Translations under genes and position numbers: made by a program
Notes under the pieces: generated by a model
What the model saw: only the letters and a program-made list of their open reading frames with translations
What the model was told of the DNA's origin: nothing
Database searches by the model: none
Part shown: positions 8,306-30,800 of the stretch, piece by piece
Numbering within the stretch: position 1 is the first letter of the stretch
Layout of the letters: every line of letters starts with the position of its first letter
NCBI GenBank assembly: GCA_001275005.1
Contig: JWZX01003160.1
Coordinates: forward strand, 1-35,086
DNA from: Chrysochromulina tobinii
Lineage: Eukaryota
DNA length: 35,086 nt
Direction: 5' to 3'

Positions 8306-11300
8306 ATGTCGCGCGGCATCCTGTCCAAGGCGGAGAAGGAGAAGCTCGCGGATTCGCGCAAGCAGGTGGCCAAAGTGCTCGAGCGCGATGCCAACCTCTC
8401 CGATCGGGACCTCTACGATCGGCTTCTCAAGCAGGCACGCATGCCGGAGCAGGACATGTACGAGGAAAAGCTCGCGGACAACGCACTCATCCACCAGCGG
8501 CCGGCTTTCAGCGAGGTGCCGGGCGGCTACACGCCGATGCCGGCCGCGCTCCAGCAGGCGGCCCAGGGTGAGTACTACCACAGCTTCCAGGGCCTCTTCC
8601 CGCAGATCCACCGCGCTTGGATGACCATTGACCACGTGCTCTACCTGTGGGACTACAACGACCCACGGGGCTCGTTCTACCTGTATGATGGGCTCGACCA
8701 GACGATCATCCACGCGTCCCTCGTCCGCCCGCGCCAGGGCGTTTTCGAACCCACGCCGGACTGGCTCTTGCTGCTCTCCACGCCGGTTGAGGTCATCCTC
8801 CTCGGGCTGTACACGACCGCCACCCACGACATCAACGTTTTCGAGACGGGCTACTCGGTGGCCACCGACGGCGCGAACCTGCTCCAGATCGTGGGGACGC
8901 CGAGCGGTCGCATCTTCATGGCCGGCGCCGACGGCTTTGTGTACGAGCTCACTTACGGCGATAGCGAGGGCTGGTTCTACACCAACAAGAAGTGCACCAA
9001 GCGCAACCGCTCACGCAAGCGAGACGTGGCGCTGCAATACCTCAGTTCAGTGGTGTACGACTCCTCGGACCCCATCCTCGATCTGGTGTACGATGCTGAG
9101 CGCTCGCTGCTGTACACGCTCTCGCGTGCGTCGACGCTGCAGCTCTTCGACCTTGGCTGGGACGGCGAGGGCCCTGTGCGGTTCGTCGCGCGTCTCGAGG
9201 CCCAGAAGCTCGCTGCCGACCTCCGATCCCAGAGCAAAGTGCGCGACGCGCCCATCTACGCGAAGGTGGATAAGGACATCAAGGAGGGCGAGCAGAACAA
9301 AGAAGGGCAGACCGCCTTCGTGGCGCTCGCGCCGCTCCCGTCGGCGCTCTCCAAGCAACTTCAGCTCGTGATCACGACCGTCTCCGGGGTAAGAGTCTAC
9401 CTGGAAGTCGTCGACGCGAATGGGAAAGGCCTGGAGAGCGCGCCCGACAGCCCGCGCGCCGCGAGAGTGAAAGTGCTCTACGCGCTGCCGCCGCCTCGGC
9501 CTCTCAAGTGCCAGCGCGGCACGGTGCCCAACGCAGCGGACGTGAATGTCTTCGCGGACGAGCTTGCGCGCTCCGGTCTCGAGCCATCCCACAGAGAATG
9601 GGAGTTGCTCTGCCTCTCGGATCTGCCGCTGCTCCCCTCCGACCGGCCAGAGGGCAGAGATGACAAGTCGACCCTCAGCCGGCTGCGCGTCCCAGGAGTT
9701 GTCTTGGCCCTCGCCGAGGACGTCCACGGCGCCGTGACGAGCGCCGCGGGCAGCTACGAGCTCGTCAGTCAGCATCGGGTCGATCCGGCGCGCGCTCGTA
9801 CCTTCATCGTTCTCACGACGAGTGTAGCGGGTGTGAAGCGCATCGTCAAGCGACGACCAGTGGATGAGCTCCAATTGCTCCTCGGGGCGTCTAGTGCCTC
9901 TTGGGTCGACCAGCCATTGGACTTTTTTCGTCGGTACGGCCCTGACGAAGCATGCGCCGTGTGCCTGCGTGCATGCAAGTGCTCACCACGACGCCCCATG
10001 CACTTCCCCACAGATACGGCCCCGACGAAGCATGCGCCATGTGCCTGCTCAGTGCCATCAGCCAGCCTGCCCTCAGCCAGCCAGCCCTCCAGGCGCAGCT
10101 CGCGGAGTGGGCTCGCCGCTGGGGGGAAGGCGCATCATCGGCGATGGCCGCGGGCCAAGGTGGCGCACCGAACGTCGCGCAGACCGCAGCGGCGCACGGG
10201 CAGGCAGTGCCGCTCGCGGAGAAGCGGTACAGCGGGAGACACGGCGGGCTATGCCGGGTGCTCGCGAGGCTGCTTCAGCCCTATTGGGATCGGCCGTTGA
10301 TCCTCAAAGTGCCGGAGCCCTCGAACGCTACCGGTGAAGATTTGCGCCTGTGCGAGCCTCGCGAAAGATGGAACGAGCTCCAGGGCAAATTGCTCTGCCT
10401 CATCAACCATATCGAGACGCACGGAGAAGCTTGGGGACGCTTGGGTGCTGCCGGGTACGCGGGTACGAATCCGCGCGCGTCCCTTGGCGGCGGTGGCGCC
10501 GTCGGGATGCACCAGCTTGGGCAGGGGCTCTTGGCCGACCCGAATGTCCCGCAAGCGCTCAGACATGCATTTCCGCCAGCGCTCAGACTTGGCGCCGTCG
10601 TTTCTCAGGACGAGGCGGATTTGAAGAAGCAGGAGGCTGCCGCGATCGACGCCCTTTTCTACTTTGCGAAGCGTGCGGCGGAGGCGGCCACCTTCCTCGC
10701 GACGATCGCGGCCGATTCGCGCGCGCCCGGCGGCGGCGGTGGTGCCACCGTGCCCGAGCCGGCGCGTCTGCAACTGCTCGACAAACTCGCGAAGCCTCTC
10801 GACGCGCCGCAGCGTGAGGCACTGCTTAAGATGACCCTCTCTGATCTGCTCGTGCCGCTCCAACGGGATGCAAACGGCCGGCCGCAGCCGGACAAGTGGG
10901 ACGCGCGCGTGGAGACCGAGCTGCCCAAGAAGCTCTTCATGGAGCTCGGTAAGGTCGAGGGTGTCCCAGTGGCGTCCCAACTGCAGCGCCACTGCCACAC
11001 CTTCTTCTCGGACGCGCACAAGGAGGAGCAGACTGGTTTGGATGACTTGAAGAAAGCGGAGGAGAAGCCTGAACAGCGGACCGAGAACGTCAAGAAGGCG
11101 CTCGACGCCTTCGGCCGGGTGGCGGCGCACATCGACCTGCCGCAGGTCCTCGACGCGCTGCTCAAGTCCCGTGCCAAGTTCGCCACAGATGGGGCCAGGG
11201 CGGCCGCGGTACTCGAGCTGCTCAACCAAGGGATCGCATCACTACCCCTCGCCGCCGCCAGGTCGGACGATCCTACGGGCGACGCCACAAGCCTGCTAGT

Positions 11301-13080
11301 ACCCGTGGCAGGCGGCGGCGCCATGACCGGCGATCCGATGGCGATCATCAAGGGCTGGCCTGACAAGAAAAAGGAGTGTCTGGTGAGGCGCTTGAGTCGC
11401 TACCACCTGCTGTTCAAGAAGGTGGAGGAGCTCGAGAAGCCGCCGAAGCCGTCGAGCGCGCCGACCCCGCACGACAACGAACGCGGTGGGCTCGACGGGT
11501 TCCGGGTGCTCTCCCTTGCTATGCGACAGCAACCGGTAGATGAGCTCTTCCACTACGCCGCCTATTATTGGCTCCTGTACGGACAGCGGGCCGACATGTT
11601 GCTTCTGCTGGCTCAGGAGAAGAGCTCTCCGTACCTCGAGCGTTTCGTCTTCGATATGCAGCGTTTCAAAGTGAGGACTACGACAGAGCCCGATCTTCGT
11701 CAAGAGCACCGCGAGCTCCTGCACGCCCTTGTTCGCGCGCACGAGGTGTGGAGCCGCTTCGTCTTCGTCTCATCGCAGGAATCCTTCGCCACACTCGACA
11801 AGCTCATGGAGAGCTCGCCCGATGACTCGAAGTGGCAACATGTGGAAGAGGAGCTCGACTCGGGCGAGCTGCTGCCGAGGTTGTATGCCCGCCAGGAGAG
11901 ACTTCTCGAAGCAGCGATGGCCTTCGCAGAGCTCGCCGAGCGGCCCGACTCGGCTGCACCCCAGCCGCCCGCGCCAACCGCGCCCGGGCTCGCTCCCGCG
12001 CCAACGAACCCACCGCCAGCCCCGAGCGCTAACCAGCTGGAGCAGCGCCGTCGGCACGTCGAGAAGCGCGTTTTTTATATGAATCGGGCGCTGTCCTATG
12101 CGCCGAAGGGCGGGTTGGGCGCGGACGAGCGCCGCTCGCTAGAGGACAATCTGCAGCGCGGGAAGCTGCAGATTGACGTGGCGAAGTGGCTTGAAGCACT
12201 CCTGCTGAGCCACGCGGACGTGGAGCTCGAAAGATTGCGGCCGCACACATTGGACGACCGCACTGGAGCTCCACGGGACAAGGAGGAGCTGCGTCAGGCG
12301 ATTGTTCACTTCCACGCGCAGGTGTGCGGCCGGCTGCTCGACATCATCGCGCTCTTCAAGGGCGCGTGGGCAGCTCGCCTCTGGCGGCCGTCGCTGGCAA
12401 TCCTTGACTTTTCGCGCCCGTACCGCGAGTACCCGCAGTTGATTACGAGTGCTCTGCAGGAAATACTCGGCCAGCCGCCGAGTGTCTGGGCGCTGCCCGC
12501 CGTCGACGCCCGCGCCGCCTTTCGCGAGCGCGACGAGCTGCTGCGCGAGGTGGTGGAGCTTCGAAAGCACTTTCCGAATGAATATGCCTTCCAGGCCGAC
12601 GCGGTGATTGCGTGCCTCGAGGCTCACGAGCTAGCCCGCCCAGACCAGGCGAAGCCAGGCGAAGTTGTGAAGATGTTCTGCGCGGGCCGCGCGGGCGTGC
12701 AGCCGCCCGTGTGGCCGCAAGTGCCATGGCCCGTTCTGTACCAGTGCTATGGCTCGCCGGAGCGGTGCGGACCTCTCATGCAGAAGCTCTGGGCGGGGAG
12801 CCGGCGCAACCTCGGCCAAGGAGTGAGGCAGAGTGACGCAGAGGCTCGAGTGACGCAGAGACTCCACCTCATCGGTGGGTTAGTGGAGCTGTTGAGCCGT
12901 TGGAGGGAAGCCGCGCGCGTGGAGTTCATGGCCGCGCAGCGCCAGCTGGGGATCGCCTCCGACTTGGAACGGCTGATGACCGAGCTGGACGGCATCCTCT
13001 CGGCGAACTCGGGAACGTTCCCGAGCGCTCAGGACCTGAGACGTCGAGTCACCGAGCTCCACCATTCCCTCGGCCGCTAG
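8306..13080 (+). CDS. NUP155: Nucleoporin Nup155/Nup170 family; exons 8306-9933 and 10014-13080
   Basis: GLFPQIHRAWMTIDHVLYLWDY, GRIFMAGADGFVYELTY, RYGPDEACAMCL, YSGRHGGLCRVLARLLQPYW and DELFHYAAYYWL match Nup155/170. An 80-nt GT..CAG intron restores the frame (CG|A). Confidence 0.92.
9934..10013 (+). other. Spliceosomal intron (80 nt) made of an exon duplication plus a cassette
   Basis: gtacgg...ccccacag; removal joins ORFs 8282..10300 and 9952..13080 in frame. Confidence 0.88.
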
Positions 13081-13121
13081 TGACACACGCTTGGGACACA
13101 CGCTTGTGACACACGGCCATT

Positions 13122-13212
13122 CTGGACGGCGCGCCGGAGGGGACGAGAGGGGCAGCAGGCATGTGCTCGCCACTATGCTCTCTCCCCACTGGACGGCGCG
13201 CCGGATGGGACG
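13122..13212 (+). repeat. 24-bp direct repeat around a degenerate GCATG-TGCTC-CCAC cassette, just 3' of Nup155
   Basis: ctggacggcgcgccgga(g/t)gggacg at 13122-13145 and 13189-13212; filler includes gcatgtgctcgccactatgctctctcccca. Confidence 0.8.
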
Positions 13213-13242
13213 GCGCGCTAAAGCGGCCGGCGCGGCGCGAAA

Positions 13243-13290
13243 GTGCTGAATTCGGCTCTGTGCTGAATTTGGGACTGTGCTGAATTTGGA
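13243..13290. repeat. Three 17-bp-period repeats of gtgctgaatt
   Basis: gtgctgaatt at 13243, 13260 and 13277. Confidence 0.8.
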
Positions 13291-14338
13291 AATGTAAGTG
13301 CCGCAGAGGCGCATGCGGGAGACGAGGACGGTGGCGGCGGCGACGCTGATGCGGCCATAGTATTGAGGGTATTGGAGGTGGCGCGCCGTTGTGAGCGCGG
13401 AGCCCACGAGGGAGCTGGGGCACGTGCGATGACGACGCTACTCTCGAGAGCGGCTCAGCTCACAGCTGGACGCTGCGGGTCGGGTGGCGAGCGTGACTTT
13501 GTGGCAGAGCTACTTTGGAGGACGCCGCGGCGGCTCCTGTGCGGTCGAGCGCAGATCGGGACGGACACGATATCCCAGCGGCAGCGGCTGCGGGGCGGAG
13601 AACAGAATCCAGGTGTGTGCGTTCGGCCATTCTTGGTTCATGTCGTTGCGGTTCATCTTGTGTGTTTTGTGTGTCATTGCACATTGCGGTGCGCGAGCAA
13701 GCGCGCCGGTCCGTCGGTCCGGTTGTTCCGTTATCGGTGGTGTCGGTGCTTAGTCGGTGCCGCCACATACGTATGGTTTACCATTATGGTATTGAAAGGA
13801 AGGAAAGGAAAGTGGAAAGGCTGAGACACATCCGCGGTGCACGTTCTCAGATAAATTATCATTTGAGATTTCGTACCATGAATTTGAGGACACACACATC
13901 CACACAGACACACCGCATCACCGGGGCCACGGCCAGCACGGTCCACCGCAGATAGGTGTTCGCAGCGGCGCCACCTAAGTTTAGGGGCGAGTCGTGAGTC
14001 GACGTGTCCACCAGGATATAACTCGAGTAACGCGAGTATGATGTATGTTACTTTCCGGCGTTGTGTGAGATGTGAGCGGGTGGCTGGTGTGGCGCGTGGA
14101 AAATTTGCAAGGTCCTGTCCTCATGTGAATTGCGGAGGTTCTCGTTTTCCAGTGGAATTCGATGCCTTGATTCGATGAAGCGAGTTCCGTCATTGAGCGT
14201 TTGTGTTTCACAGCCAATGTTTATAATTCGACACCCAAGACACCGGACCTGCGTACCAGTACATACCGGTACGTGTGCGGTTACATCGTTTCACTATCGT
14301 TTCACAGCAGCAAGCCGGAGTGTGGTCTAGAAAAAAAG

Positions 14339-15535
14339 ATGCTCGCTCGCGCCTGCAGCTCGCGCCCCGCGAAGCTGCACTACTTTCGCGGTCGCGGGCG
14401 CTCGCAGCTGTCGCGGTGGGCGCTGTTGGTCGGGATCATCATCTTTGCACGGAGGAGGAAGATCCGCGTGCTGGCAGCAATAGCAGCGGCAGCGGCGCTA
14501 GTAGCTGGTGGGGTGTACTATCACCGACTGAGAGCGGCGCTCGCAGCACTCGTGGCCACCAACCGAGATCTTGCCGTGCAATATCACCGACTTAGTGCAG
14601 AACTCGCGACACTCACGACCACATGCCGATATCTTGCAAGATATTACCACCAGATGAAAGCAGCAGTGGCGACGCTTGCGACCGCAAACCGAGCACTTAC
14701 CATCGAGGCCGAGAGCGTGGTCAGAGCCCAGCCTCTCCTAGGTCGCGTTGCGCTCGTCACGGGTGCGGGCGCTGGGATTGGACAAGGTGTGGCAGTGGCG
14801 CTTGCGAGCGCGGGCGCAGTTCTGGTGCTCAGTGACATTTCGCAAGCGGCTGCGAACGAGACTGCCGCGCACTGCAGGGCGATCGGCGCAAAGAGCGTGA
14901 GCGTCGTCGTTGCAGATGTGTTCGACGACGAGAAAGCGGGCAGGCTCATCGTCGAACACGCCATCTCACAGCACGGAAGGCTGGACTGCGTCGTGACAAA
15001 CGCAACCTGCTGGTCGAGCAGGTCATTGAGCGCACGTGCGTCGCTAGTCGAGCAAGACGCGAAGGAGACGATGCGGAGCATTGAAGCCAACCAGCTCGGA
15101 ACACTGCATACGCTGCAAGCCGCTGCCGAGGCGATGCAACTTCAGGAGCCGCTCGATGGGAGTGAGAGCCGAGGGAAGATGGTGATCATCTCCTCGATCA
15201 TGGGTCTGCCCATGCTCTCCAAGCAGGCGGCTTCATACTCGATGAGTAAGGCCGCCATTAGCCACCTCGGCGCGTGCCTCGCTTCACAGCTGATCGACGA
15301 GCGCATCAACGTCAACACAGTCAACACAGTTTGCCCAGGCTGGCTTGACGCATCGGAGGCGGACATTGCTCGACTTGGGGCACAGATGCCATGGAGGCGA
15401 CTCGGCAAGCCTTCCGAGATAGGGAAGGCTGTCGTCTTCCTGTGCAGCGAGGATGCCACGTACATCACGGGTAGCACGCTAGTGGTTGACGGGGGCTACA
15501 CAGTGAGCAACAGGCTTTCGTGTGGCGGCGCGTAA
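14339..15535 (+). CDS. Classical short-chain dehydrogenase/reductase with N-terminal hydrophobic segments and 21-aa repeats
   Basis: VALVTGAGAGIG, GRLDCVVTNA, ISS, catalytic YSMSK, VCPG, RLGKPSEIG and YITGSTLVVDGG. First plausible ATG at 14339. Confidence 0.88.
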   Translation: MLARACSSRPAKLHYFRGRGRSQLSRWALLVGIIIFARRRKIRVLAAIAAAAALVAGGVYYHRLRAALAALVATNRDLAVQYHRLSAELATLTTTCRYLARYYHQMKAAVATLATANRALTIEAESVVRAQPLLGRVALVTGAGAGIGQGVAVALASAGAVLVLSDISQAAANETAAHCRAIGAKSVSVVVADVFDDEKAGRLIVEHAISQHGRLDCVVTNATCWSSRSLSARASLVEQDAKETMRSIEANQLGTLHTLQAAAEAMQLQEPLDGSESRGKMVIISSIMGLPMLSKQAASYSMSKAAISHLGACLASQLIDERINVNTVNTVCPGWLDASEADIARLGAQMPWRRLGKPSEIGKAVVFLCSEDATYITGSTLVVDGGYTVSNRLSCGGA

Positions 15536-15765
15536 CATAAAGTAGCGCTCCCGGTCAGCACTCAGGGTCGAGGGTCCTCAGTCCTGTCACGTCAGGTTTT
15601 TTGGCGTTTTGCTCAACGGGCCCGCGCACTCGCACAGCTCACCGGCTCAGCGGCTCTCACGGCAGCGGAGAGGAGTGGGCATAAACTTTTGGTAGGAATG
15701 CAGAGGTTTCGAGGCAAATTGCCGCTTTTTTTCACAAATTTCATTTCCACGGGCGCCACCCTGCC

Positions 15766-17982
15766 ATGCGCAGGAGCAGCTCACCCGTCATGAAATGCGA
15801 GGTGGATGCGGCGCGTCGGGAGACGATTGGCACTCCGCGCCGCCACCGCTCGCGCATCGGTGTCGACGCGGGCACACCGCCGACTCCTGTTCCGATGGCA
15901 TTGCCCTTGCCGCCTGCAGAGCCGTCCACGCCGGCAAATGAAGGCGTTGCGTGCACGCCTCACCGGCCGCCGGGAGAGCCCACCAGCGCCAATCGACCAC
16001 CTCCCCCGCACGCACGGCCCCAAAGGCACTCCTCGCGCACGGCCGCGGCAACGGCGGAGGCCACGGCGCGCGCCTCACGCATCTGCGTCGGACTCATGCG
16101 CATCATCCAGCAGGGGACAGAGCTGCAGCGATGGGTGGACAGCGCCGAGGGTGTCCAGTGCCCGCTCGATCAGCTGGAGAGAATCGTGAGTGCGCTACAG
16201 CTCGCCGAGGACGCGCTCTCGCGCCTGCGCGCATGCATCGAAGGCGCTTCCCAGCGGGAGAATGTGTGCGCCGCACTCCTGCGACAGGCAGACAAGACGA
16301 ACGCTCTAAACGAGGCGTACGAGCTGGGCAGCAGGCGCACCCCCGCGCTGACCATGCTGCTGCACAACCTCCTCACGTCCATCTCGGCCACCGCCTGCGC
16401 GTGCGTCAAGCAGCTCAGGCCGGCGCCCTCGCCGGCGTGCTTGGTGCAGCTGGACGACGGGACGGAGGAGGCGCTTCGGCAAGCAGAGCTCGAGCTGAGC
16501 CGTGCGTGCGGCACCGACGGGTGCCTGCCCGAGCCAGCGGAGGGCGCGGCGCCCTCCGACGGTCCCCTGCGCCCCTGGTCGGCGGCGAGCTCGGCGGCGG
16601 ACGCGTCGGTGGATGCGTCGGCGGCGTCGTCCTCGGGGTCTTCGTCCTCGACGGCGGCCTCGGCCTCTGTGACATGGCAGTCGACCTCTCGAAGCTCCAA
16701 GTGGCAGACTACGACAATCGAGACCCTCGAGTGGGAGGCGTGCGTGGCAAGCTGCACGCCGCAGCAGCAGTGCGACTCGCCGGTGCCTCGCTCGCCGCGT
16801 CCGCCCTCATCAAGCGCGTACCGCGCGCGTGCAGAGGCCGCTGCCCTAGCTGCCCGCGTACCCCTGCGGCGCGTGATGCATCAGCAGCATCGTGACTCGC
16901 CGCCGCCCTACGGGCTGGGCGCCGAGAACCACGAGCCCGCCTCCGCGAGTGGAAGTGCTCCGAACAGCGCCTCGGCCGGGCGGCCCTTTTCGAGCCCGCT
17001 CCCCTTGGCGGACTTGGGCGCTCGTCTGGGCGCGGGCGTGCTTGAGCGCCTGGCGGCGGTTGCGCCGCCGCCGCCGCCGCCGCCCACGGACGCGCTCGGC
17101 GCGTCGCAGCCGCCGCCAGGCGACACCTCCACGGCGCGCCCACCCAGCTCTTGTAGCCGACGATGCGCTTCCTATGCCCCACAGCCGCCGCCTGCCGAGG
17201 CCGATCCGCTCGGGGCGGCGCGCCACGGCACGCCACGCACGCGACCCGAAACGCCAGCCGGCGACGGCTGGCGTGTGCCCGTGCGCCCCGAGACGCCAGC
17301 CGGCGACGGCTGGCGTGTGCCCGTGCGACCCGAGACGCCGGCGGCCGGCACGACTTGCGCTGCGCCCTTGGCGGTGCCGCGGCCCATTGCGGCTATCGCC
17401 GGTCCTGATGGCATTCGACCGGCCTCAGCCTACGAGCGGAGGCCCTCGTTCGGCAATCTGGAGCCGCTGCGCGATCCGCCAGCGTGCCCCCCTCTCGAGC
17501 TCTGCTTCGCCTCCCTGGCCGACCGGCCCGATCTCGAGGAGGACTCGCTGAGCGATCGAAGCTTCGAAGCTGCCTTTGGCGACAAGGGTGGCGGCCTTGG
17601 CGGGCTGGGCGGCGGCCCTGGAAGCTTCGGCCGCCCCCGTCGTCTCGAATTCCTCTCGCGCCCGGGCTCAGCGGCGTCGCTGCGGGGGGCACCGCCACCG
17701 CTCCTCTCGCCCAGCTCCGCGTCCTCAGCCGCCTCGTCCTCGCCTACCTCGCTCACTCCGAGCACGTCGCTCACGCCTCTCTCGAACACCTACAGCCCCT
17801 CGCCGCTCGCCGCCTCGATCGATGCGGCCATGCGGGCAGCCAACTCGGCGCGCAGCTCGGCGGTCAGTGACGCCTCCAGGCCAAGCAGTGAATCGCCGGT
17901 GGCGTTGCCGCACAGGCCGCACTCGCCGCCTCCGCTGAGCCGCTGGCCGACCTCTCTGGCGGCCGCCGAGGGCGATTCTTGA
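15766..17982 (+). CDS. Hypothetical Pro/Ser/Ala-rich protein with a helical N-terminal region
   Basis: 738-codon ORF with GC-rich third positions; no recognised domain; contains a 14-aa tandem repeat. Confidence 0.6.
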   Translation: MRRSSSPVMKCEVDAARRETIGTPRRHRSRIGVDAGTPPTPVPMALPLPPAEPSTPANEGVACTPHRPPGEPTSANRPPPPHARPQRHSSRTAAATAEATARASRICVGLMRIIQQGTELQRWVDSAEGVQCPLDQLERIVSALQLAEDALSRLRACIEGASQRENVCAALLRQADKTNALNEAYELGSRRTPALTMLLHNLLTSISATACACVKQLRPAPSPACLVQLDDGTEEALRQAELELSRACGTDGCLPEPAEGAAPSDGPLRPWSAASSAADASVDASAASSSGSSSSTAASASVTWQSTSRSSKWQTTTIETLEWEACVASCTPQQQCDSPVPRSPRPPSSSAYRARAEAAALAARVPLRRVMHQQHRDSPPPYGLGAENHEPASASGSAPNSASAGRPFSSPLPLADLGARLGAGVLERLAAVAPPPPPPPTDALGASQPPPGDTSTARPPSSCSRRCASYAPQPPPAEADPLGAARHGTPRTRPETPAGDGWRVPVRPETPAGDGWRVPVRPETPAAGTTCAAPLAVPRPIAAIAGPDGIRPASAYERRPSFGNLEPLRDPPACPPLELCFASLADRPDLEEDSLSDRSFEAAFGDKGGGLGGLGGGPGSFGRPRRLEFLSRPGSAASLRGAPPPLLSPSSASSAASSSPTSLTPSTSLTPLSNTYSPSPLAASIDAAMRAANSARSSAVSDASRPSSESPVALPHRPHSPPPLSRWPTSLAAAEGDS
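17242..17343 (+). repeat. 42-bp coding tandem repeat (RPETPAGDGWRVPV x2.4)
   Basis: Visible in both DNA and translation. Confidence 0.9.
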
Positions 17983-18055
17983 TGATGGAGGCAATCAGAC
18001 TGATGAGGGAGGCAATCAGCATGCCCAGAGCAGCCGAGGGCGATTCTTGATGATG
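17965..18055. repeat. 23-bp direct repeat spanning the stop codon, flanking a gaggcaatcag-containing filler
   Basis: gccgagggcgattcttgatgatg at 17965-17987 and 18033-18055, with a 45-nt filler. Confidence 0.88.
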
Positions 18056-19148: not shown

Positions 19149-19229
19149 ACTCATCTCCCCTACTTCCAACTTCCAACTTCTTCACAGGCTCATCTCCCCT
19201 ACTTCCAACTTCCAACTTCTTCACAGGCT
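19149..19229. repeat. Tandem duplication (39-bp period) upstream of COA5
   Basis: ctcatctcccctacttccaacttccaacttcttcacagg occurs twice in tandem. Confidence 0.9.
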
Positions 19230-21807: not shown

Positions 21808-22187
21808 GCCTCCTCCCTCTTGGCTGGTGAACGCGCTGACTCTTAATTCGTGAAGTGCGGCCCCTCCCCGCACGAAAGCCAGGACCAAGGAGGAATTCCA
21901 AAAACCCCTGTGACAAGAGCTTTATCTGAACGTGACCTGTGGACACGCGGCATGGCTTGCTGTGTGCGCGGGCAAGTGTGCCCCGATTCCCGGATGTGGC
22001 AAGCGCCCGGCCCCGGTCATCTCGCGCTGAGTCTGAGGTCTGACGTGAGTCTGACACTTCTCCCGTCCCTGTAGGAGATGGACAGCACCCACACCCCACA
22101 GCCCCTTCGCATCCTCTAGAGCTCTATCGCTCTCCTCACTCGGGAAGGCGAGGTCTTCCTCTCTCTCCCGGTCTCACTTCACAAGAT

Positions 22188-23294
22188 TCACTTCACCAGA
22201 TTGAGCTTCTCGAAGACGTAGTATCCGCACATGAACTCGGCACCGTTGTTCGCGCCAAAGGCCTCGGCAACTGCAATGTAGAACATGCGGAAGCCTTCGT
22301 AAAAGTCGGAGCCGTACTTCTTGACGAAGCGCGCCTTGTTCTTCTCCTGCAGCTCGAGCCACGCGAGGCTCGTCTTCATGTAGCCGACCCCACTGATCGG
22401 CTGGACGTCAGCCAAGTACAGGTCCTTGGGTGCGAGATGGAAGTATGAGTTGAGAGCGAGGATCGAGCCGCCCGTGTAGAAGTTGCGCCCCATCCACGTG
22501 TCGGGGCTAAGCAGGTAGCTGCACGACTGGTGCAGCAGCGAGTGCACGAAGAACTTGGCACCCGGCTTTAGGCGGAGTGCAACGCCTCGCAGCAGCTCAC
22601 CGATGTTCTGTGCGTGCTCTACAGTCTCGATGGCAATGGCGGCATCGAAGAGGGGCGCACCCGCGGGCGCGACCTTCGACTTGGATGGATCGACGAAGAG
22701 CGCGTAGTCCTCGACGGACACTGTCAGGTTGGTGATGCCCCGCTCCTTGGCGCGCGCACGGATGAACTCGATCTGCGGCGGCGAGTTCGAGAAGCTGATG
22801 AAGGTGAGGTGCGGGAAGCGCGCCGCGTTGGTGAGCGAGATAGCGCCCCAGCCGCAGCCGAGCTCGAGCACACGCGCGCCGGCGGGCAGCGACGCGAGCC
22901 CCGCCTTTTCCTGGTAGATGGCGACAGTGTAATCCTCTGCCTTGCCGAGGCCGGCGGCGAACCCGTCCTTCTCCGAGCCCTCGGGCCACTCGCACGCGCT
23001 GTACTTGAGACGCGGCCCGAGGTGCAGAAGGAAGAATTCGGGATCGTTTGCGTACAGCTGCTCGTTGGTCACCTCGACCTCGGCCGTCACCGGACGCATG
23101 AAGCGCTCCTTGCGGTCCAGAATGATCTGCTGCACCACGACATCACCACTGCGCATCAGGTAGCCACAATACTTCATCCACGAGGCCACGAGGAAGCGCA
23201 AGAACCATGTGGGCATGTAAGGCTGCACATCCTTGACGAAGAGCTCTGCGAGCTCGCCGTTGAGGAGCAACCGGAGACGCGACTTGGTCGCCAT
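22188..23294 (-). CDS. SAM-dependent methyltransferase, coclaurine N-methyltransferase-like / Cfa family
   Basis: NEQLY, FFLLHLGPRLKYSAC, VLELGCGWG, SNSPPQIEFI, IETVEH, WMGRNFYTGG, AEAFG. Confidence 0.9.
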   Translation of the reverse strand: MATKSRLRLLLNGELAELFVKDVQPYMPTWFLRFLVASWMKYCGYLMRSGDVVVQQIILDRKERFMRPVTAEVEVTNEQLYANDPEFFLLHLGPRLKYSACEWPEGSEKDGFAAGLGKAEDYTVAIYQEKAGLASLPAGARVLELGCGWGAISLTNAARFPHLTFISFSNSPPQIEFIRARAKERGITNLTVSVEDYALFVDPSKSKVAPAGAPLFDAAIAIETVEHAQNIGELLRGVALRLKPGAKFFVHSLLHQSCSYLLSPDTWMGRNFYTGGSILALNSYFHLAPKDLYLADVQPISGVGYMKTSLAWLELQEKNKARFVKKYGSDFYEGFRMFYIAVAEAFGANNGAEFMCGYYVFEKLNLVK

Positions 23295-23529
23295 TGTAGA
23301 TGCCGACCGGATCCAAGTTCCTGGCGGAGGAACTGCGTTTACATGTATCTCGGGAGAACGCGATCACCTGCGGTTACTTCGAGCGCGTAAAACTCTCCCA
23401 CAACCGCGAACTATTTTCCTCACGGCGACTTCTCTCCATGTCCTTTGGTTCTTTCGGTTAGCGGTTTGTTTTCACGCGACCTATGTTTGGAAGAAACTTG
23501 GCTCCAAATCCACTTGCGCTTCGCAAAAA

Positions 23530-24781
23530 ATGTGAGTTTGCCAATATGTCGCGGTCCTCGCTGCTCTCGTCGCTGCCGGCCTGTACGCCGGCCATCACTC
23601 ACGGCTGGCAATCGACTCTCGCTCTCTCGCTCTCTCGCTCTCTCTTTCTCTCTCTCTCTCTGGCAGGCGACGATCGCCAGAACCCCTACCCAAGTACGAT
23701 GTGTTGCCTTGGTCGGAACCCGCAGATTTTTGCTACCAACCGTCGTGGCCCAGGCGCGCCCCCGGTCCGCCCCCGATCATCAATCCCGTGCAGCATTCTG
23801 GCAAGAGCGAGATGATGGGTTCGTCCCTTCAGTCCAACGCAATCAACTCGCGCAAGGCTGGGCCGACCAGCATTGGCGGCGGACTGAAGAAGATGATGTC
23901 GGAGGGTGCGACGCGCGGTCAGAGCGAGGCAAAGCTCCTGTGCGAGTACGCCTCGAAGAAGTGCCAGAGTGAGCTCTCTCTGCTGTTGAAGTCGGGCGCC
24001 GACCCGAATGTTCTATGCAAGGTGGACTGGCAGCCGTTCGAGACGACGCCTCTGCTGGAGGCCTCCGTTGCCGGGTACAAGCGTTTGGTGCGTCTGCTGC
24101 TCGAGCATGGCGCCAAGCCGAACACTGTGGTGGGCCCGGGCTTTACGGCCATCTACAACGCTTGCATGGTGAGCTCGCACCCACCCCTCTTCCTCCACCC
24201 ACCCCGCTCCCTCCACCCACGCACCCCTCACCTTCTGCCCACCCGTCGCTATGCAGAATGGGCACTATGAGGTGGTGGCCCTCCTTCTCGAGCACGGGGC
24301 GACCGTGACGCAGCTGACGGACGAAGGCTTCTCGCCCCTCTACATCTCCGCCCAGAATGGCCATATGGACTGCGTGGTTCTTTGCCTTGGGGCAACGAGC
24401 ATGACCAAGGAGCTCGCCGATCTCGGACCGAAGGAGCTTGGGGGCGCCACAGCGCTGTACATCGCGGTGCAGAATGGGCATCCCGACTGCGTGCACCAGC
24501 TCATCAAGGCGGGTTGCGCCATTGACCCCGTCACCGAAGCGGGTTCGACGCCGTTGATGATTGCCCTGTACCTTTCAGACATTTACGCCGACAAGCCACA
24601 CATCGACTGCGCGCGGATGCTCCTCGAGGCGGGCGCCTCACTCGAGCTGAAGGACAAGTCCGGCCGGGACGCGCTCGGCTGGTGCGGCCACGACTACTCT
24701 CTGATTGACCTTGTGGTCGAGGAGCAGAAGCTGCGCGATCGCCAAAAGAAATCTGGAGAGTTTGGCCGCGGCTTCTGGTGA
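23530..24781 (+). CDS. Ankyrin-repeat protein; intron 24169-24256 and probable intron 23532-23666 (alternative start at ATG 23812)
   Basis: TTPLLEAS, GFTAIYNACM|NGHYEVV, GFSPLYISAQNGH, ATALYIAVQNGH, STPLMIA. The 88-nt gtgagc..atgcag intron joins two ORFs in frame. Confidence 0.85.
23613..23661. repeat. (CT)n-rich microsatellite acting as a probable polypyrimidine tract
   Basis: ctctcgctctctcgctctctcgctctctctttctctctctctctct immediately before ggcag. Confidence 0.8.
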
Positions 24782-25318
24782 GCTGGCATGGGTGTCGCAA
24801 CTTGTTCAAAGCGCCCGCGGTCCTGCTTGAGCGGGGCAGCTCGGGCATACGTGGCCTTTGTCCATAGACTGCGGGCGGCGCATTATCATGATCGTGGTAG
24901 AACCATGGCGCCCACCATGGCGCCGAGCTGCCGCCCGTACGCTCTCGGTACGTGAACGTGAGCACGAACGCGAGTCGCGGGACGTGCGTGGTGTATGTCT
25001 GGCGTGTGTGGCATAAGTGGAGGGAAGGGGATGCGTGTGGCACCGCCTGGGTGCGACGAGCAAACGAGCGACGAAGGGACGCTCAGTGTGACCGATGTAC
25101 GGCTACATGTACGGTTGCTGACAGTGGTTCTCGGTCACGATGGGGGGACTGAGATGAGGGACTTTTGACTATTTGATGGAGGCACGACCTTTTCTGAGTT
25201 AGTTGGTGACCGAGTGTGAAGACTTGTGGGTTGTGTATTCATATGAAGAGACGTGCTCACACCTCCCTGTGGTCGCAAGCTCGCACCTCTGAGCCGACCA
25301 CTCCGACGCGTCATCCCT

Positions 25319-26002
25319 ATGCATCGCTTACGTAGCAAGCTCGTCACCATGCTGCTCGTGGCGCGGTGCACGGCAAGGGACTGCACCCTATCTGGTGTGG
25401 TGGAGGGCGGGTCGGCTTGGAGCTTCAATCTCGCAGGGTGCAGCTTCGTCGATCTCTCTGCGAGCAACCTGCCCGAGGACGGTCTGCTAGCGCTGGCCGA
25501 GGTGCTAAACACCAACACGGAGCTCACTTCGCTCAGCCTCCGCCACAATTCGATGAGTGACAACGGTGTGAGGGCGCTGGCTGATGCACTCAAGATCAAC
25601 ACCGCTCTCACCGTACTGCTGCTGGGCTTCAACTCGATTGGCAACGAGGGCGCAAGGGCGCTCGCCGGAGCGCTCGAGGTGAACAGCGCGCTCACCCTGC
25701 TGGACCTCGACTCCAACGCAATAGGCGCCGAGGGTGCGAGTGCGCTCGCTGAGGCGCTCAAGGCGAACAGTGCGCTCGTCGTGCTGACCCTCGGCTCCAA
25801 CCCGCTTGATGGTGAATCCCGGCGTGCTGTCGAAACGGTGCTCGCGGTGCGTCCAGAGGAGCGAATGCAGAGGTATGCCGGAGGAGGCGCCAGAGGTATG
25901 GCTTCGCTCCATGAGGAGGTACGGCGTCGCTCCATGCTGGACGACGATGCAACCGGAGCCGACGTCGCCGGTGCAAACGCCAACGCGCGACTTGAGCTGT
26001 AA
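25319..26002 (+). CDS. Ribonuclease-inhibitor/NLRC3-like leucine-rich repeat protein
   Basis: 28-aa repeats LTSLSLRHNSMSDNGVRALADALKINTA, LTVLLLGFNSIGNEGARALAGALEVNSA, LTLLDLDSNAIGAEGASALAEALKANSA. Confidence 0.88.
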   Translation: MHRLRSKLVTMLLVARCTARDCTLSGVVEGGSAWSFNLAGCSFVDLSASNLPEDGLLALAEVLNTNTELTSLSLRHNSMSDNGVRALADALKINTALTVLLLGFNSIGNEGARALAGALEVNSALTLLDLDSNAIGAEGASALAEALKANSALVVLTLGSNPLDGESRRAVETVLAVRPEERMQRYAGGGARGMASLHEEVRRRSMLDDDATGADVAGANANARLEL

Positions 26003-26312
26003 AGTGTTAACATGAGGGTATAGGTTTTACATTATTACTTTTTACGATTTTCCGCGGCTACAGCCGGTACGCAGCAGTGTCGACGGCGCTAAGTACCGCT
26101 CGTTCCGGTCCACCGGGGTCCGAGATAATTTTTTATCACACGGGTCACGGCCGCCGCGCGCCATAAAATTAGATATGACGCTCTGGCGTGGCCAGGGTGG
26201 CTCACAGACCGGACTGTCACCGCACGGGTACAGCGGCCGGAAGCGCCACGTCTCGCATCGCACGGTCGCAGGTCTGCACTGCCGTCCACCTCTCCGTCCA
26301 CCTACCGTCCAC

Positions 26313-27498
26313 CTAAGCGCCCGGCAGCACCAGCGGCAGCGGATTCTCACTTGCGCCGTGGTCCTTGGTCAACAGCTCCAGTTCGACGGCCCAGCGCTCC
26401 CCAAAAGTCTCGACGGGCAATAGAGCCCAATTCGCCGGTGTGGCACCCGGAGCAAGCTCAGGCTCGTTGAAGTCATGAACGGCAAACCACTTGCAGCGGA
26501 AGGCTTCTGGGTCGATGTTGGCCTTAGCAAGGTGCACCGCCAACTTGGGGTAGGCTGCGTTCCACGGCCCGAAGCTCATGCGCGTGCTGCTCTCTATGAT
26601 GGGTTTGAGTGTGAACAGGCGTAGCACGCACTCGTCGCAGTCGCGCGTGCGTAGCTGGCGGCACACGGCGCTCAACCGAACTCCCGAGCACTCGCGCAGC
26701 ATGAGCGAGCCGTCCACAGGCCCCAAGAGCACGCGGCAGCCGTGGCAGCCGTCAATCCGTCACTTGCTGCGTCCAGTCGAGCACGTGTACCTCGCAATCG
26801 ACGAGATCGCTCAGCTCGCAGCAGCCGCCGTTGAGCTCACCAGGCTGCACCACGAGCCGCTCGGAGCGCCTATCGCTCAGCACCATACGCTGAGGTGCAT
26901 TTGGGTCGGCCAATTTGGGAGTGGCCACTGGCAGCGGCGCCACGACCGCGGCCGTGACGGCTTCATCTCCAGATGCCTGAAAGCCAGGGGGCAGCGTGTT
27001 CGGGGTGCGCACACCCCTTTTCGCGGATTGCGGCCGCGCTGGCCGAGGCCGTGCCGCCGATGCAGTTGGCATCGGAGGTGCGGGTGGTGCGGGCGGAAGC
27101 GAAGCGGCGGCGGCAGCGGCGGCGGCAGCGGCGGCCGCCGCGGCAGCCTCAGCAAGCGGGCCACCCGATGGCAAGGAGACGGAGAAAGTAGTGCTCGTCG
27201 TGCTAGTGCGGCACAGAAGCGTTGGCTCGTCGTCATCATCATCCGGCATGTAGAAGGTCGACACGAGCAGCTCGAGGAGCGTTCGCAGCGGCGCCGCTCG
27301 CTTGCGGTTGGCCAGCAGAAGCGGCTCAAGCTTTAGAAGGCGCACGATGTCTGCGCGCGACGTGAGGTCCTCATCGGCCGGTGGTCGTGCGGCGTCGAGC
27401 TCGGACAGCGCCGCTTTAAACCCTTGCCGGCTAAGGTACTCGCGCACCACGCCGAAGGCGAGCGTCTCCGTGGCTGCGTCGGCGGCCGATGGCTGCAT
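26313..27498 (-). CDS. RP2/TBCC-domain protein with LisH/MINDY4-like N-terminus; 1-nt frameshift near 26757
   Basis: LSDLVDCEVHVLDWTQQVT/IDGCHGCRVLLGPVDGSLMLREC..AVCRQLRTRDC..PIIESS..FGPW is a TBCC beta-helix. The sequence ACG G ATT GAC carries one extra G. Confidence 0.82.
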
Positions 27499-27808
27499 GG
27501 CCAGAGCGAGTGTGTGCCCCACGTTCGCAAGTCCGCAGAAGTCCGCGGGAAGTTTTTAACCTGTATTCACAGTCGAACTCCAATGCCCTTCTCCTCGTCT
27601 GTCGTCTACAAGTGCGCCATCCTGATCTGGCCGGAAAGACGAGCCGCCGTCCCCTGACCGTCGGCTCCCCAGGCTTCACCTGATGAGTGTGAATGGCGGG
27701 CACACCAGGCTGCTACTCCCGTCCGTGTGCTCAGCTATGTGCTCAGCACTCAGCAAAGAGACCCTCGCTAGACCCGTCGCCGACCCACCGAGTGCACCGG
27801 CATCTTGC

Positions 27809-30800
27809 CTAGTCGCGCGCCTCTTTGCACACCGGGCCAAAGCCGCGGCCGCTCGCGTCAGTCACCTTGGTGAAGCCCATCGAGATGCATCCGCTCTCCT
27901 CCGCCGCGCGCGCGAGGCACGGGTCAGCCTCGGCAAGCGCCGGGTGGCCCGTCTTGAGGTGCAGCCAGCCGTTGGAGTCGGGCGACGAGCAGCACTTGCA
28001 CGTCATCTTATCGTGGAAGTTGGAGCGAGAGTCGAACTGCGGCTCAAAGAGGGAGCTGAGCTCACCCGCGGAGAAGCGGTTGGCGGCTCCCTCGCCGTCG
28101 ACAATCTCGCCCGCGAGACCATTCTTCGAGAACTGACGACCCAAGCACACCTCTTCGAGGCTGCCCACCTTCAAACAGGGTGGGTTGCAGAGGGAGGGGG
28201 GCGCCATGGTGAGCACTTGCATGCAAGGCAGAGTGGGTTGCAAAGGGAGAGGGGCGCCATGGTGAGCACTTGCATGCAAGTACATGCAAGGAGACGGTTA
28301 CGGCAGCATCGAAGAGGTTCAGGAGAGAGCGAACGTACAGCAAAGAGCCGGTACACGTAACACGGCTTCTGCTGCCCGCTGCGCCACACGCGCGCGAGCG
28401 CCTGGGCGTCGATGGCCGGATTCCAGTCCGGGTCGAAGAGGATGAGTCGGTTGGCGCCGATCAGGTTGATGCCACAGCCGCCGGCCTTCGAGGAGAGTAG
28501 GAAGGCGAAGATGGACGGATCGGTGTTGAACGCGTCGACCCGCTCCTGCCGCTTGTTGGCGGCGAGCGAGCCGTCGAGCCGCATGAAGCGCAGCCGCTCC
28601 TTGCTCAGGACTGCGTCGAAGAGGTCCAGGATCGAGGTCGAGTTGGAGATCAGCACGAAGCGGTCGTCCGTGGTGCGTTTCACCTCGCGCAGCAGAGCGC
28701 GCATCGCCCTCAGCTTGCCAGAGGCGGCAACCGCCGCGTCCACATCGATGGCACCTTGCCGCGCCTCGAGCGCCTCGAGCACGCGCTTGCCGCTTACGCC
28801 GCCGCCTACGCCTCCGCCCGCGCCACCAGTCACCGCCGCCGCTTCAGTCGCTCTTGCTTCGGCCGCGGCGAGGCTCTTGGCTGCGAGAGGGTCGTTGACA
28901 ATCTTCTTGAGCATCGCGACAGTGCGCAGCGCCGTCTTGTTCTGCTGCGCCTTCTCGCCGGTCTTGGCGGCACGTTGCCAGGCTGCGCGGCCGACGGTGA
29001 CCTCGTGCGTGTAGGCAGCCTGCTGCTCGCCCGTGAGGGAGCAGAAGACAAGTACGTCGAGCTTGGCGGGAAGGTACTTGGCGATCACCTCGTTCGAGCG
29101 ACGGAGCATGAGCTGGTTGACGATGGCAATGAAGGCGCTCGATGCGGCGCTCCCGCGCTCAATCTCGGCGTCGCTCGCCTCAAGGTCGCGCGCCTTCTCG
29201 ATCGCCTTGCCATATTTGGCCTGGAACTCCTTCTCCGAGCCGAGCCCGTCCGGGATGCAAAAGTGGAGCAGTGCAAAGAACTCCTCGAGACCATTCTGGA
29301 TGGGTGTACCGGTGACCATCAAGCGCATCTGTGTGGGCAGTCCGAACAACGCTTGAAAGAGGGCCGTCTTGAGATTCTTGAGTTTGTGCGCCTCGTCGCA
29401 CACGAGCAGACCAAGCGGGATCGTGCGCAGCGTCTCGACGTGCAGCCGCGCCGTGTCGTACGAGAGGATGAGCAAACGCGCCGTGCGCAACGCTCGGAAG
29501 CTCATGAGCTTCGCCTCGATGTCATCCTTCATGTCGCTCGTCAGAACTGTGAGGTTGAGCTTTCGGGGCAAGCCCTCAGTCCACTTGGCCACCTCGTCGC
29601 GCCAGTTGTGCACAAGGCTCGTCGGGCAGATGACCGCCGCCGTCGTGATCAGCCCCTTGCTTTTGCCCGGCTCCATGCACGAGTACAGCAGCGTGTGGAT
29701 CGTCGCGATCGTCTGAAGCGTCTTGCCGAGTCCCATATCATCGGCTAGGAGGCACCCCTTACCGATGGCCTTGCGCCCGAGGCACGCCTGCACGATGAAC
29801 TGACAGCCGGCGCTCTGATGCGGGCGCAGCTTGGCGGCGAGCAACGGGTCCATCATGAGCGCGCACTGGCCTTCCTGCCACGGCTCGCAGAGTACAAGCC
29901 GTACCCCCGCGGCTGCCGCTGCGCCATCTGCGCTACTGCCGCCGCCGCCGCTTCCCATTCCGCGCTTCTTCCGCAGAAGGCCGCCGCCGCCGCTACCGAA
30001 GCCGCTCGTGAGGCTCACCATCGTGCCCATCCACATGCTGCCTCCGCCTCCGCCTCCGCCTCTGCCGCGCTCACCCTCGTCGGTCGCCTCCTCGTCGTCG
30101 TCGTCGTCCGCGTCCTCGCCGTCGGCGCGCTCGCGCTTTACCTTTGAGCGCGGCGGGGGGGGTGGCATCGCCCGCGCGATTACCGTGCCCGCGACAGCTT
30201 TGGGCGCGCCGAACTTGCGCTTCTTGAAGGGCATCGCCGGCCTCGCAACCGGAGGCACGTCGCCCTCGGCAGGCAGGTCCTCATCGGCCGTCTCTTCCGC
30301 CCCGCTGACGAGCAACGTGCCTCCCTGCGCTGCCTCGCTGAGGAACGTGCTGACGAAACGAGCCTGGGAAGAAGACGGTGCCGCCGCGCTCATGCCAAGG
30401 CCGCCGTGGCCGCTCGTGAACATGAAGCCGTGAAGTGGCTTGCGGCTGCCGAACAGGCCGCCGATCGGGGTCGAGCGCATCTGCTCTGTTGCATGCGCCC
30501 CGATGAGATCGCAATCTCCATCAACACGTTCCTCGCCGTCGAGCGCCTCCACCTCCTCTTTAGCTTCCTTCGCAGCCGTCGCCGCTGCTGACGCCGCTGA
30601 GGTCTGCGCGGGCTTCCGCGCGAGCTGCTGCTCCACCTGCTGCTCGTGCTGCTCCTCCGCCGGTTCCTCCTCCTTGACAGTGGGCATCGGCAGCAACGTC
30701 GGGCGAGCCGCAGCCGCCGTCGGGCGCGAGCTTCCGTCCTTGCGTGGCGGTGCAAATGACTTGCGCTTGCGCGCGCCGGGCTGCTTGGTGGAGTCGGCTT

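Follow-up and report, generated by a model that had tools for sequence, protein, structure and literature searches.

The stretch of DNA analysed here (the window) comprises 35,086 nucleotides, positions 1 to 35,086 of the forward strand of the Chrysochromulina tobinii contig JWZX01003160.1. Two of its genes, Nup155 and Rad54 (Table 1), contain an identical 18-mer, found at 9971-9988 on the plus strand in the former and at 28207-28224 and 28260-28277 on the minus strand in the latter, always in sense orientation to the gene. The cassette family that bears this motif in its core is here named family 1. At up to three mismatches the window contains four matches to the 18-mer, and none of 100 shuffled sequences reached four (mean 0.03).

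Table 1. Genes, introns and repeats of the window discussed in the text.
Feature	Position	Strand	Remarks
Nup155 host gene	8306..13080	+	Exons 8306-9933 and 10014-13080; Pfam Nucleoporin_N and Nucleoporin_C
GT..AG intron, 80 nt, type A	9934..10013	+	35-nt duplicate + 45-nt cassette
Intronic duplicate of downstream exon, source of GT donor	9934..9968	+	32/35 nt identical to 10014-10048
Family-1 cassette	9969..10013	+	Core 9971-9994, pyrimidine tract, CCCCACAG acceptor; HMM E=2.6e-10
Exonic copy of duplicated target	10014..10048	+	Kept in spliced RNA contigs, 0 other letters from 10015 on
24-nt direct repeats (13122-13145 / 13189-13212) around 43-nt filler (13146-13188)	13122..13212	+	After Nup155 stop
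23-nt perfect direct repeats (17965-17987 / 18033-18055) around 45-nt filler	17965..18055	-	Family-2 motif at 18000-18019
Rad54 host gene	27809..31377	-	Pfam SNF2-rel_dom, Helicase_C; named matches are RAD54
Predicted intron, 170 nt, atypical mosaic	28169..28338	-	GTACGTT start, 17-nt inverted exon copy, two core-bearing 53-nt units, TTTGAAG end
Tandem 53-nt duplication with two cores (28201-28224, 28254-28277)	28176..28280	-	TRF period 53, 94% matches
Inverted copy of exon bases 28149-28165	28302..28318	-	16/17 nt; not family-wide

Excising the 80-nt intron opens a Nup155 ORF of 1564 aa, and these 80 nt are missing from the X13 and X16 RNA contigs, the spliced RNA having G at the first position of the duplicated target. 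Similarly, excision of the 170-nt predicted intron opens a Rad54 ORF of 1132 aa. In both cases homologs continue uninterrupted over the junction. The end of the Rad54 predicted intron, TTTGAAG, is unlike the family-1 acceptor, and in P0141, a near-identical protein, translation continues through a shortened tandem region. As the two Rad54 cores belong to one 53-nt tandem duplication, the window has two independent 18-mer sites.

A first-pass annotation, made from the letters of the window, had placed the 18-mer once in Nup155 and twice in Rad54; positions and orientation stand, but the Rad54 pair is a single duplication. Its reported flank copies of 17-35 nt are all present (35 nt direct, 17 nt inverted with one mismatch, 24 and 23 nt), as are filler lengths of 43-45 nt (45, 43 and 45 measured). 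The degenerate copy that it saw at 13159-13190 is doubtful as a member of family 1, because the 13146-13188 filler lies after the Nup155 stop, is kept unspliced in 3/3 RNA runs and was not retrieved at E<=10 by an HMM built from 57 cassettes. At 17988-18032 the 45-nt filler and its flanking repeats are real, but the filler carries on the minus strand a different motif, CTGATTGCCTCCCTCATCAG, and belongs to a second family; contigs of X9 and X16 have a joint stepping back 38 nt at this place. Of the four sites named, the ones at 13159-13190 and 17988-18032 are therefore not introns of this family.

Further copies were drawn from a metagenome scan covering 3/64 parts, so that all site and locus counts are lower bounds. 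Family-1 sites had been selected by motif. Among the matches listed (hereafter "listed"), 190 sites were found and 22 redundant ones dropped, giving at least 168 unique sites of the core in at least 136 loci. Subtraction of 11 sites with short flanks left 157, of which 48 have a second core within ~100 nt; the remaining 109 are referred to as non-tandem. From 137 listed loci 16 redundant or viral ones were removed, and the 121 non-redundant loci hold at least 248 core-like sites (none in shuffles). The cassette is estimated to have several hundred copies in the haptophyte genome, based on the scan, a recapture estimate from six pairs and DNA-run depth. The highest named matches for Cbf5 are Scyphosphaera and Prymnesium, at 79%. 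A viral donor for the cassette was considered; the sole listed match, located where the viral contig L137 ends, was discounted as evidence.

At 67 of the 109 listed non-tandem sites the 5' part of the intron is a duplicate of 9-44 nt of the next exon (type A), compared with 1/536 in the swapped control. The duplicate starts with GT or GC at 58 of these 67 listed sites and with GTR.G at 41 of them, a pattern seen at 0.58% of coding positions; G stands just before it in 46/58 listed cases. The two copies are near-perfect: 56 differences were counted in 1463 nt, and there is no mismatch in 26/58 listed pairs. Ten listed copies, all predicted introns, have a mirror-image arrangement (type B) in which the insert bears the donor and AG is borrowed from a duplicated stretch of the upstream exon. 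A direct repeat flanks the core at 83/109 listed sites vs 1/545 swapped sites and 50/374 random positions, the latter value (13%) being high because the loci contain other duplications. Conservation extends outside the 18 searched bases (CRGCGC at 75-98% per position). The first-pass annotation had described an acceptor-bearing cassette: the cassette is real, but its constant part is a branch-point-like core, not the acceptor, and the host duplicate can supply either splice site or both. The branch A of the Nup155 cassette is predicted at 9985 within GCTCAC, since the corresponding position lies 20-36 nt before the AG end in 65/67 listed type A sites. An origin of the pyrimidine tract by mutation of an upstream-exon copy was rejected (mean score 4.35 vs 4.25).

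Removal of the insert leaves the coding frame continuous at 17/17 listed sites that are confidently sense-coded, including 11/11 whose length is not a multiple of three. At L020 RNA contigs skip four introns of 77, 71, 133 and 79 nt, and together with Nup155 five introns are cut out cleanly where checked against RNA. The earlier suggestion that the insertions are tolerated in exons by splicing out thus holds, and so does that of a genome-wide, sense-biased process linked to flanking duplications: the motif is not rare, it is strand-biased, and duplications are enriched around it. Inverted flank copies, which had been taken as part of the pattern, are not enriched (1/108 listed sites vs 8/643 controls) and are incidental.

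Presence/absence variation is found in family 1 at L014/L129 and in family 2 at L061/L088. Compared with the empty site L014, the filled L129 has an extra 81 nt consisting of a 34-nt perfect duplicate and 47 nt that match an intron ~480 nt downstream (candidate donor core at 477 nt). At up to two edits, the 48-nt L129 cassette occurs in the 137 listed loci and the window only at L014, L057 (the same site) and L129. It is the one clean empty/filled family-1 pair among the matches listed; the empty allele is present in two assemblies, and the direction is probably gain, not loss. Filled and empty close relatives, the duplicate architecture and clean splicing together make it likely that new introns arise when part of one already present is copied into an exon, with no transposon involved. 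It could be argued that introns are not being created at present and that these are ordinary old ones whose branch-point consensus is strong and specific to the lineage, supplemented by tandem duplication, intron loss or assembly artefacts, given that the genome is rich in tandem duplications, that sites were selected by motif and that second cores lie close by at the 48/157 listed sites. We consider this very improbable, as the L014/L129 pair with its empty allele in two assemblies largely refutes it, the listed duplicates are near-perfect, plain tandem duplication cannot provide the cassette, and proteins of relatives are uninterrupted at the Nup155 and Rad54 sites though the same database contains unspliced read-throughs.

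Copies seem to be taken from introns already present, often neighbouring ones, and not from a fixed element. Among the matches listed, cassettes are shared by 12/167 same-locus pairs vs 185/19,874 pairs between loci and rare core variants by 16/167 vs 409/19,874, same-locus pairs being non-independent, with a few loci dominating and L062 and L064 overlapping. For listed pairs scoring >=40 the proportions are 0/167 and 9/19,874, and sharing on the 5' side is hardly above background (6/173 listed pairs within loci vs 66/3406). Long-range copying also occurs, because L010 and L115 share an 80-nt near-identical stretch in unrelated exons; L050/L082/L124 are further long-range copies. Junction microhomology of >=2 nt was seen at 5/10 sites vs 71/570, with n=10 only. 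Both marks of templated break repair, junction microhomology and a nearby template, are found, provisionally and in small numbers. L122 matches 6 nt that precede the GT of its candidate donor, bases that would be missing from an excised intron. Junctions at L113, L122 and L134 are mosaics with several switches. Of the listed gaps, only 7/58 end in >=4 nt of a known 5' master; for most long listed gaps no source was traced.

We give even chances to a model in which introns arise when a staggered break is filled by microhomology-primed copying from an existing intron, part of which is reproduced, the target being duplicated on rejoining. A host repair or replication polymerase at the break would use a few matching bases, the 3' end of the antisense strand at an exonic G|GTRNG site annealing to an existing intron's AG|GTRNG junction. 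Exon starts resembling donors would remain from previous events and make these junctions common, so that targeting would be self-reinforcing. About 45-50 nt of the donor intron's 3' end would be copied and synthesis would come back 9-44 nt downstream, so that the first exon copy would supply the donor and splicing would restore the mRNA exactly. In the mirror event the 5' 54 nt would be copied and AG taken from the upstream-exon duplicate. Selection would retain products with a branch point, both splice sites and a length of ~57-95 nt, and for this reason the core would be the constant part. A dedicated transposase would probably not be needed; polymerase-theta-like end joining or fork template switching may be the enzyme route. 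End-joining polymerases are expected to yield inverted templated copies. A candidate snap-back insert is seen once, in Rad54, with no family-wide excess; this lack and the near-complete co-orientation of same-locus copies weigh against break repair and fit an RNA template equally well or better.

The main rival is indeed RNA-templated copying, in which a reverse transcriptase, by LINE-type target priming or RNA-templated break repair, starts synthesis at a nick with an RNA that includes the intron as template (debranched intron, lariat-exon intermediate or nascent pre-mRNA), leaving a variably truncated, sense-only insert with a long, variable TSD. Same-locus copies are co-oriented in 305 of 316 listed pairs, with 11 opposite. 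Family 1 further shares variable TSD length and 5' truncation with SINEs and LINEs, many inserts end exactly at the intron AG or begin at its GT, inverted copies are not in excess, nascent RNA could account for the local bias, and the long-range sets L010/L115 and L050/L082/L124 also suit this reading. Selection, however, explains exact ends and sense bias as well, and the multi-switch mosaics, the inverted exon copy inside the Rad54 predicted intron and the abundance of intron-free local duplications in the window (19/233 bins vs 0 in 10 Markov controls) are not what it would lead one to expect. As the first-pass annotation had noted, neither poly(A) nor terminal inverted repeats are visible in the inspected flanks of the matches listed, and Pfam finds no transposase or reverse transcriptase domain in the 12 ORFs of the window. 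Insert 3' ends, which fall at CCCCACAG, inside the tract or directly past the core, differ from the fixed poly(A) or simple-repeat tail of SINEs and LINEs, and as to a tRNA-, 5S- or 7SL-derived head no credible Rfam match was obtained in the window and 3/137 loci. On balance we regard RNA-templated copying as rather unlikely, if the most serious competitor.

The second family is built in the same way as family 1 (27/50 listed sites vs 1/481 in the control, omitting matches with more repeat following or too close to the locus end), its duplicates start with GT or GC in 25/27 listed cases, and DNA depth gives ~400 copies. That an unrelated family shares this build speaks against a non-autonomous transposon, i.e., an introner proper, to the core of which some transposase not seen here, such as a Replitron-1-like HUH enzyme, would bind. 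Nor are the ends those of an element: the duplicate-to-core gap is 0-35 nt, inserts stop at AG or just past the core, duplicate length is distributed continuously, differing from the short fixed-length TSD of TIR-type introners, and the fixed termini, terminal direct repeats or 3' hairpin of Replitrons and Helitrons were not found, terminal inverted repeats being likewise absent. At L122 host-derived intron ends have themselves been recopied, and the fold of the whole Nup155 intron is no better than those of shuffled sequences (z -0.11). The transposon reading, improbable in our view, draws on the strong conservation of the core beyond the searched bases, on the G before the duplicate at 46/58 listed sites and on Replitron-1 of Chlamydomonas reinhardtii, which shows orientation-specific insertion near RG, variable-length TSDs and a parent-derived fuzzy end (PMC10288648). 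One Replitron protein has been reported from C. tobinii itself (PMC10288648). Replitron-1 differs from family 1 in its size of ~0.9-3.6 kb, TAAAGG terminal repeats and HUH transposase, and the part of that account considered here describes no intron making (PMC10288648).

The comparisons that follow rest on parts of the cited sources. Family 1 works like an introner without fixed ends or a fixed TSD: similar introns occur in many unrelated genes, splicing preserves the frame and sites vary in presence. In Symbiodinium and Polarella, introner classes 4/5 and 6/8/10 recruit one splice site from the TSD (bioRxiv 10.1101/2020.10.14.339549), and family 5 of Chrysochromulina sp. has a TSD of 4 bp and one co-opted site (10.1101/2022.06.06.494994). 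Like family 1, these are insertions with target duplication that carry one site and co-opt the other, leaving the mRNA unchanged in many unrelated genes. Their TSDs, however, are class-fixed (3-8 nt; 4 bp in Chrysochromulina) and their ends defined, whereas in family 1 the duplicate varies between 9 and 44 nt, ends are unfixed, either site may be carried and donors are seemingly often local. Family 24 of Emiliania huxleyi (~70 nt, class unknown, "co-opt 5' carry 3'", "10bp terminal direct repeats"; PMC12130899, supplementary file 8, row 1026) is likewise short, from a haptophyte, and co-opts the 5' and carries the 3' site, a likeness by description only; it has five copies, and its row gives no variable duplication or local donor (PMC12130899). 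Many haptophyte introner families with TSD "?" in the survey supplement could share the family-1 build.

Direct repeats also flank published intron gains, a pattern interpreted there as the filling of staggered breaks; those repeats are described as short and present in 43% of gains, and the sole source named in the passages considered is mitochondrial DNA, whereas the filler of family 1 recurs as a cassette, derives from introns and can be traced to a candidate donor. In tandem genomic duplication around AG|GT, too, a duplicated exon segment gives the splice sites and removal is precise (PMC3443670); in family 1 the copies are separated by a foreign cassette bearing a branch-point-like core, and the duplicate usually contributes only one site. 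In Oikopleura new introns likewise resemble nearby ones, short introns propagating by unknown or reverse-splicing routes, and partial copying with long target duplication is unmentioned in the citing texts considered (10.1101/051292; PMC4122922). No description of the family-1 build was found in the literature searched, and the motifs had no match in the introner-survey supplements searched, tables that give few sequences.

Where new spliceosomal introns come from has long been asked, and surveys at present attribute them chiefly to transposons with defined ends. The introner search of Gozashti et al. (2022) asks for similarity within 10 nt of both intron ends; family 1 lacks it, as type A 5' and type B 3' ends are locus-specific host copies; a few listed pairs, e.g., L010/L115, do match end to end. 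We hold it somewhat short of an even chance that this is transposon-free, self-reinforcing mass intron gain, in which either half of any existing intron can seed a nearby one, every event leaving a donor-like exon start to prime the next, in at least two unrelated families, active among living strains and largely missed by both-ends searches. Should haptophytes in general gain introns in this way, published introner counts miss such introns by design and gene callers will misread the loci as frameshifts. Since these recent gains still show how they were built (an empty site, a long duplication with few differences, a neighbouring candidate donor and clean RNA removal) in a culturable organism, repair, reverse-transcription and transposon models are directly testable. 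A known ncRNA origin of the cassette gained no support, the three Rfam matches in the window and 3/137 loci being weak and far under gathering scores. Taken alone, the 45-nt Nup155 filler has a fold z of -2.59.

The identical 18-mer that the first-pass annotation had placed in two unrelated genes is indeed found in both, once in Nup155 and twice in Rad54; at up to three mismatches the window holds four matches, a count reached in none of 100 shuffles. In Nup155 a 45-nt filler separates a host segment from its duplicate. Removal of segment and filler gives a 1564-aa ORF, and the unspliced frame stops at codon 664. In RNA contigs of two of the three runs exactly 80 nt are skipped here and the downstream copy is kept; the third run does not bridge the site. 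Both Rad54 copies exist, but they form one 53-nt tandem duplication. Both cores lie inside a predicted 170-nt intron, the removal of which agrees with homologues. The database proteins P0140 and P0141 are unspliced read-throughs of this intron, so the gene callers left the corresponding contigs unspliced. In P0141, 99% identical across the region searched, the intron read through is shorter and seems to have a single 53-nt unit; the tandem copy number thus varies. The proteins P0121 (a 78% identical Nup155), P0142 and P0143 of relatives run uninterrupted across the junctions, which suggests that their contigs, if they are DNA, have empty sites.

Two further candidates fared less well. The degenerate copy proposed near 13159-13190 is doubtful as a member, as its filler is retained in 3/3 RNA runs and missed by the cassette HMM. 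The other GCATGC-containing filler is a cassette, but of a second family and on the minus strand. The kinase ORF also contains a weak resemblance to the core (HMM E=0.002, 13.7 bits, compared with 12.3 for the best of 20 controls); it lies in a local near-tandem repeat and is perhaps an exonized remnant.

Features of the window discussed in the text
Feature	Position	Strand	Remark
18-mer, Nup155	9971	+	exact
18-mer, Rad54	28207	-	exact
18-mer, Rad54	28260	-	exact
Nup155 duplicates	9934-9968, 10014-10048
Nup155 skipped segment	9934-10013
Rad54 intron	28169-28338		predicted
Retained filler	13146-13188
Family 2 filler	17988-18032	-
Core-like match	4869-4894	-	kinase ORF
Tandem duplication	19150-19229		39 x2 nt; ends in acceptor-like CTTCACAG
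Tandem duplication	31781-31981		69 x3 nt
Tandem duplication	17241-17339		42 x2.4 nt
AT-rich repeat	14207-14249		intergenic
Stretch with direct repeat	6265-6380		between kinase and Cbf5 genes
ORF, 738 aa	15766-17982	+	no Pfam match
ORF, 513 aa	842-2383	+	no Pfam match
ORF, 248 aa	26752-27498	-	no Pfam match

The process is genome-wide, as had been supposed. A metagenome scan for the 18-mer gave at least 136 loci from 3/64 parts, with 190 matches listed at 168 unique sites; the tool itself estimates about 3000 stretches. Recapture among 59 contigs of apparently one organism puts the number of contigs at about 270 (range 123-730), each with 1.6 sites, and DNA depth points to about 500 copies; both are rough estimates.

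The conserved core extends beyond the 18 bases into CRGCGC. Of the 109 sites that have complete flanks and a single core, 83 have a direct repeat (score at least 12) around it, compared with 1/545 swapped flanks and 50/374 random positions, which supports the suspected tie between motif and copied flanks. At 67/109 sites (swapped control 1/536) the bases that follow the AG recur as a copy upstream of the core, the host duplicate supplying the donor and the cassette the acceptor (type A). These duplicates measure 9-44 nt and 58/67 begin with GT or GC, the acceptor is CCCCACAG in 48/67, and the introns span 57-94 nt (one of 123). A 30-nt 5' segment is common to 13 sites. In the mirror-image type B (10 sites) the distance from donor to core is exactly 30 nt, and the predicted intron closes with a copy of the AG end of the exon upstream. 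At some of the remaining 29 sites the duplicate provides both splice sites, and others appear not to splice. Duplicate copies differ at only 56/1463 nt, hence the events are recent. Between loci L032 and L079, a whole unit of exon piece plus intron is tandemly duplicated (94 nt) in one assembly and not in the other.

A codon model built from nine genes of the window read the spliced flanks as sense in 52/57 type A and 10/10 type B sites, in line with the anticipated strand bias. Both flanks were called with confidence at 19 sites, of which 17 were sense on both and 2 discordant; the reading frame is continuous after removal in 17/17, including 11/11 with length not a multiple of three. At locus L020, four RNA runs show skips of 77 (one run), 71 (two runs, with a 72 of unknown content in a third), 133 (one) and 79 nt (three), bounded by GT..AG on the gene strand; the lengths 77, 71 and 79 had been predicted beforehand. 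Together with Nup155, these skips show five introns being spliced out, as first proposed.

Presence/absence differences between relatives were also found. Loci L014 and L129, from different assemblies, are 96-97% identical, and L129 has 81 extra bases, namely a perfect 34-nt duplicate starting with GT plus 47 nt. Judging from the perfect copies, we infer intron gain, precise loss being the alternative. The process extends beyond a single motif: family 2, ending in CTGATTGCCTCCCTCATCAG, shows the same duplication at 27/50 terminal sites (control 1/481), 25/27 duplicates beginning with GT/GC, and one such intron is present in L061 and missing from L088, which is 85% identical. This is a real and recently active intron-making process, and it is highly improbable that no gain is ongoing.

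Apart from L129 itself, the cassette inserted there occurs (≤2 edits, 137 loci plus the window) only in the intron located 477 nt downstream in L014 and in L057, a duplicate assembly of L014. In L122 the start of one intron copies the host-derived 5' end of another that lies about 400 nt further downstream, and 6 nt match bases preceding the GT of that second intron. Same-locus pairs with unrelated exons have cassettes in common more often than pairs between loci (12/167 vs 185/19,874), and likewise rare core variants (16/167 vs 409/19,874), although the pairs are not independent. Long-range copies exist as well (L010/L115).

GTR.G starts 41/67 duplicates compared with 0.58% of coding positions; insertion targets look like donors. 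If selection were the only factor, many neutral failures should lie near genes, yet splice-competent forms dominate this sample picked only by the core, which argues for some built-in targeting. It would come from microhomology to AG|GTRNG junctions of existing type A introns. Junction overlaps of at least 2 nt occur at 5/10 testable sites versus 71/570, and we give microhomology-primed DNA copying about an even chance. Inverted flank copies, noted earlier, are not enriched (1 of 108 vs 8 of 643 controls), and copies within a locus mostly share their orientation (305 vs 11). Both observations suit an RNA template and count against DNA copying; RNA-templated copying is the main, though less likely, alternative. 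A hidden non-autonomous element is unlikely.

In the portions of the sources available, introners co-opting one splice site from a target-site duplication (TSD) work alike, but have fixed 3-8-nt TSDs and defined ends (10.1101/2020.10.14.339549; 10.1101/2022.06.06.494994). The 2022 pipeline, as described there, required similarity near both intron ends (10.1101/2022.06.06.494994), which types A and B lack. The catalogue, as far as available, lists haptophyte introners, many families with TSD undetermined, and 0 families for C. tobinii; its nearest entry is E. huxleyi fam24, with 5 copies and '10bp terminal direct repeats' (PMC12130899). The main texts of PMC12130899 and PMC11282704 contain no haptophyte passage. 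Judging from the accessible parts of the reports, Daphnia break-repair gains, tandem duplication (PMC3443670), local intron propagation in Oikopleura and Replitron-1 each share part of the pattern. We found no description of the whole build in the literature searched; relevant material may exist in supplements or in the authors' sequence repository.

The window is eukaryotic (GC about 63%), and the best named matches of its Cbf5 protein are the haptophytes Scyphosphaera and Prymnesium (79%). Eighteen public runs, all labelled mixed culture metagenome and 6/18 of them RNA, share at least half of the sampled words of 6500-13300. Over 9001-29000 the runs differ from the window by about 16 substitutions and 8 small indels, the window thus representing a slightly different strain or haplotype. 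A viral-collection contig (L137:1786-2060) that carries a 658-aa ORF closes with a short stretch rich in repeats, with the core in its last 60 bases; this is likely a chimera or host junction.

Local duplications are abundant in the window (19/233 bins vs 0 in 10 controls). The separate AT-rich repeat, at a DNA depth of about 1,050 copies, had 0 matches in the fetched metagenome loci and 0 in viral contigs; contig loose ends suggest related sequence on to about 14290, and it is possibly the end of a dispersed element. Between the kinase and Cbf5 genes, inspection by eye shows a direct repeat of GAAAACAAAAGTACGCGGA whose copies enclose an inverted arm pair of CAGG(T/A) type; this intergenic stretch resembles a further templated insertion.
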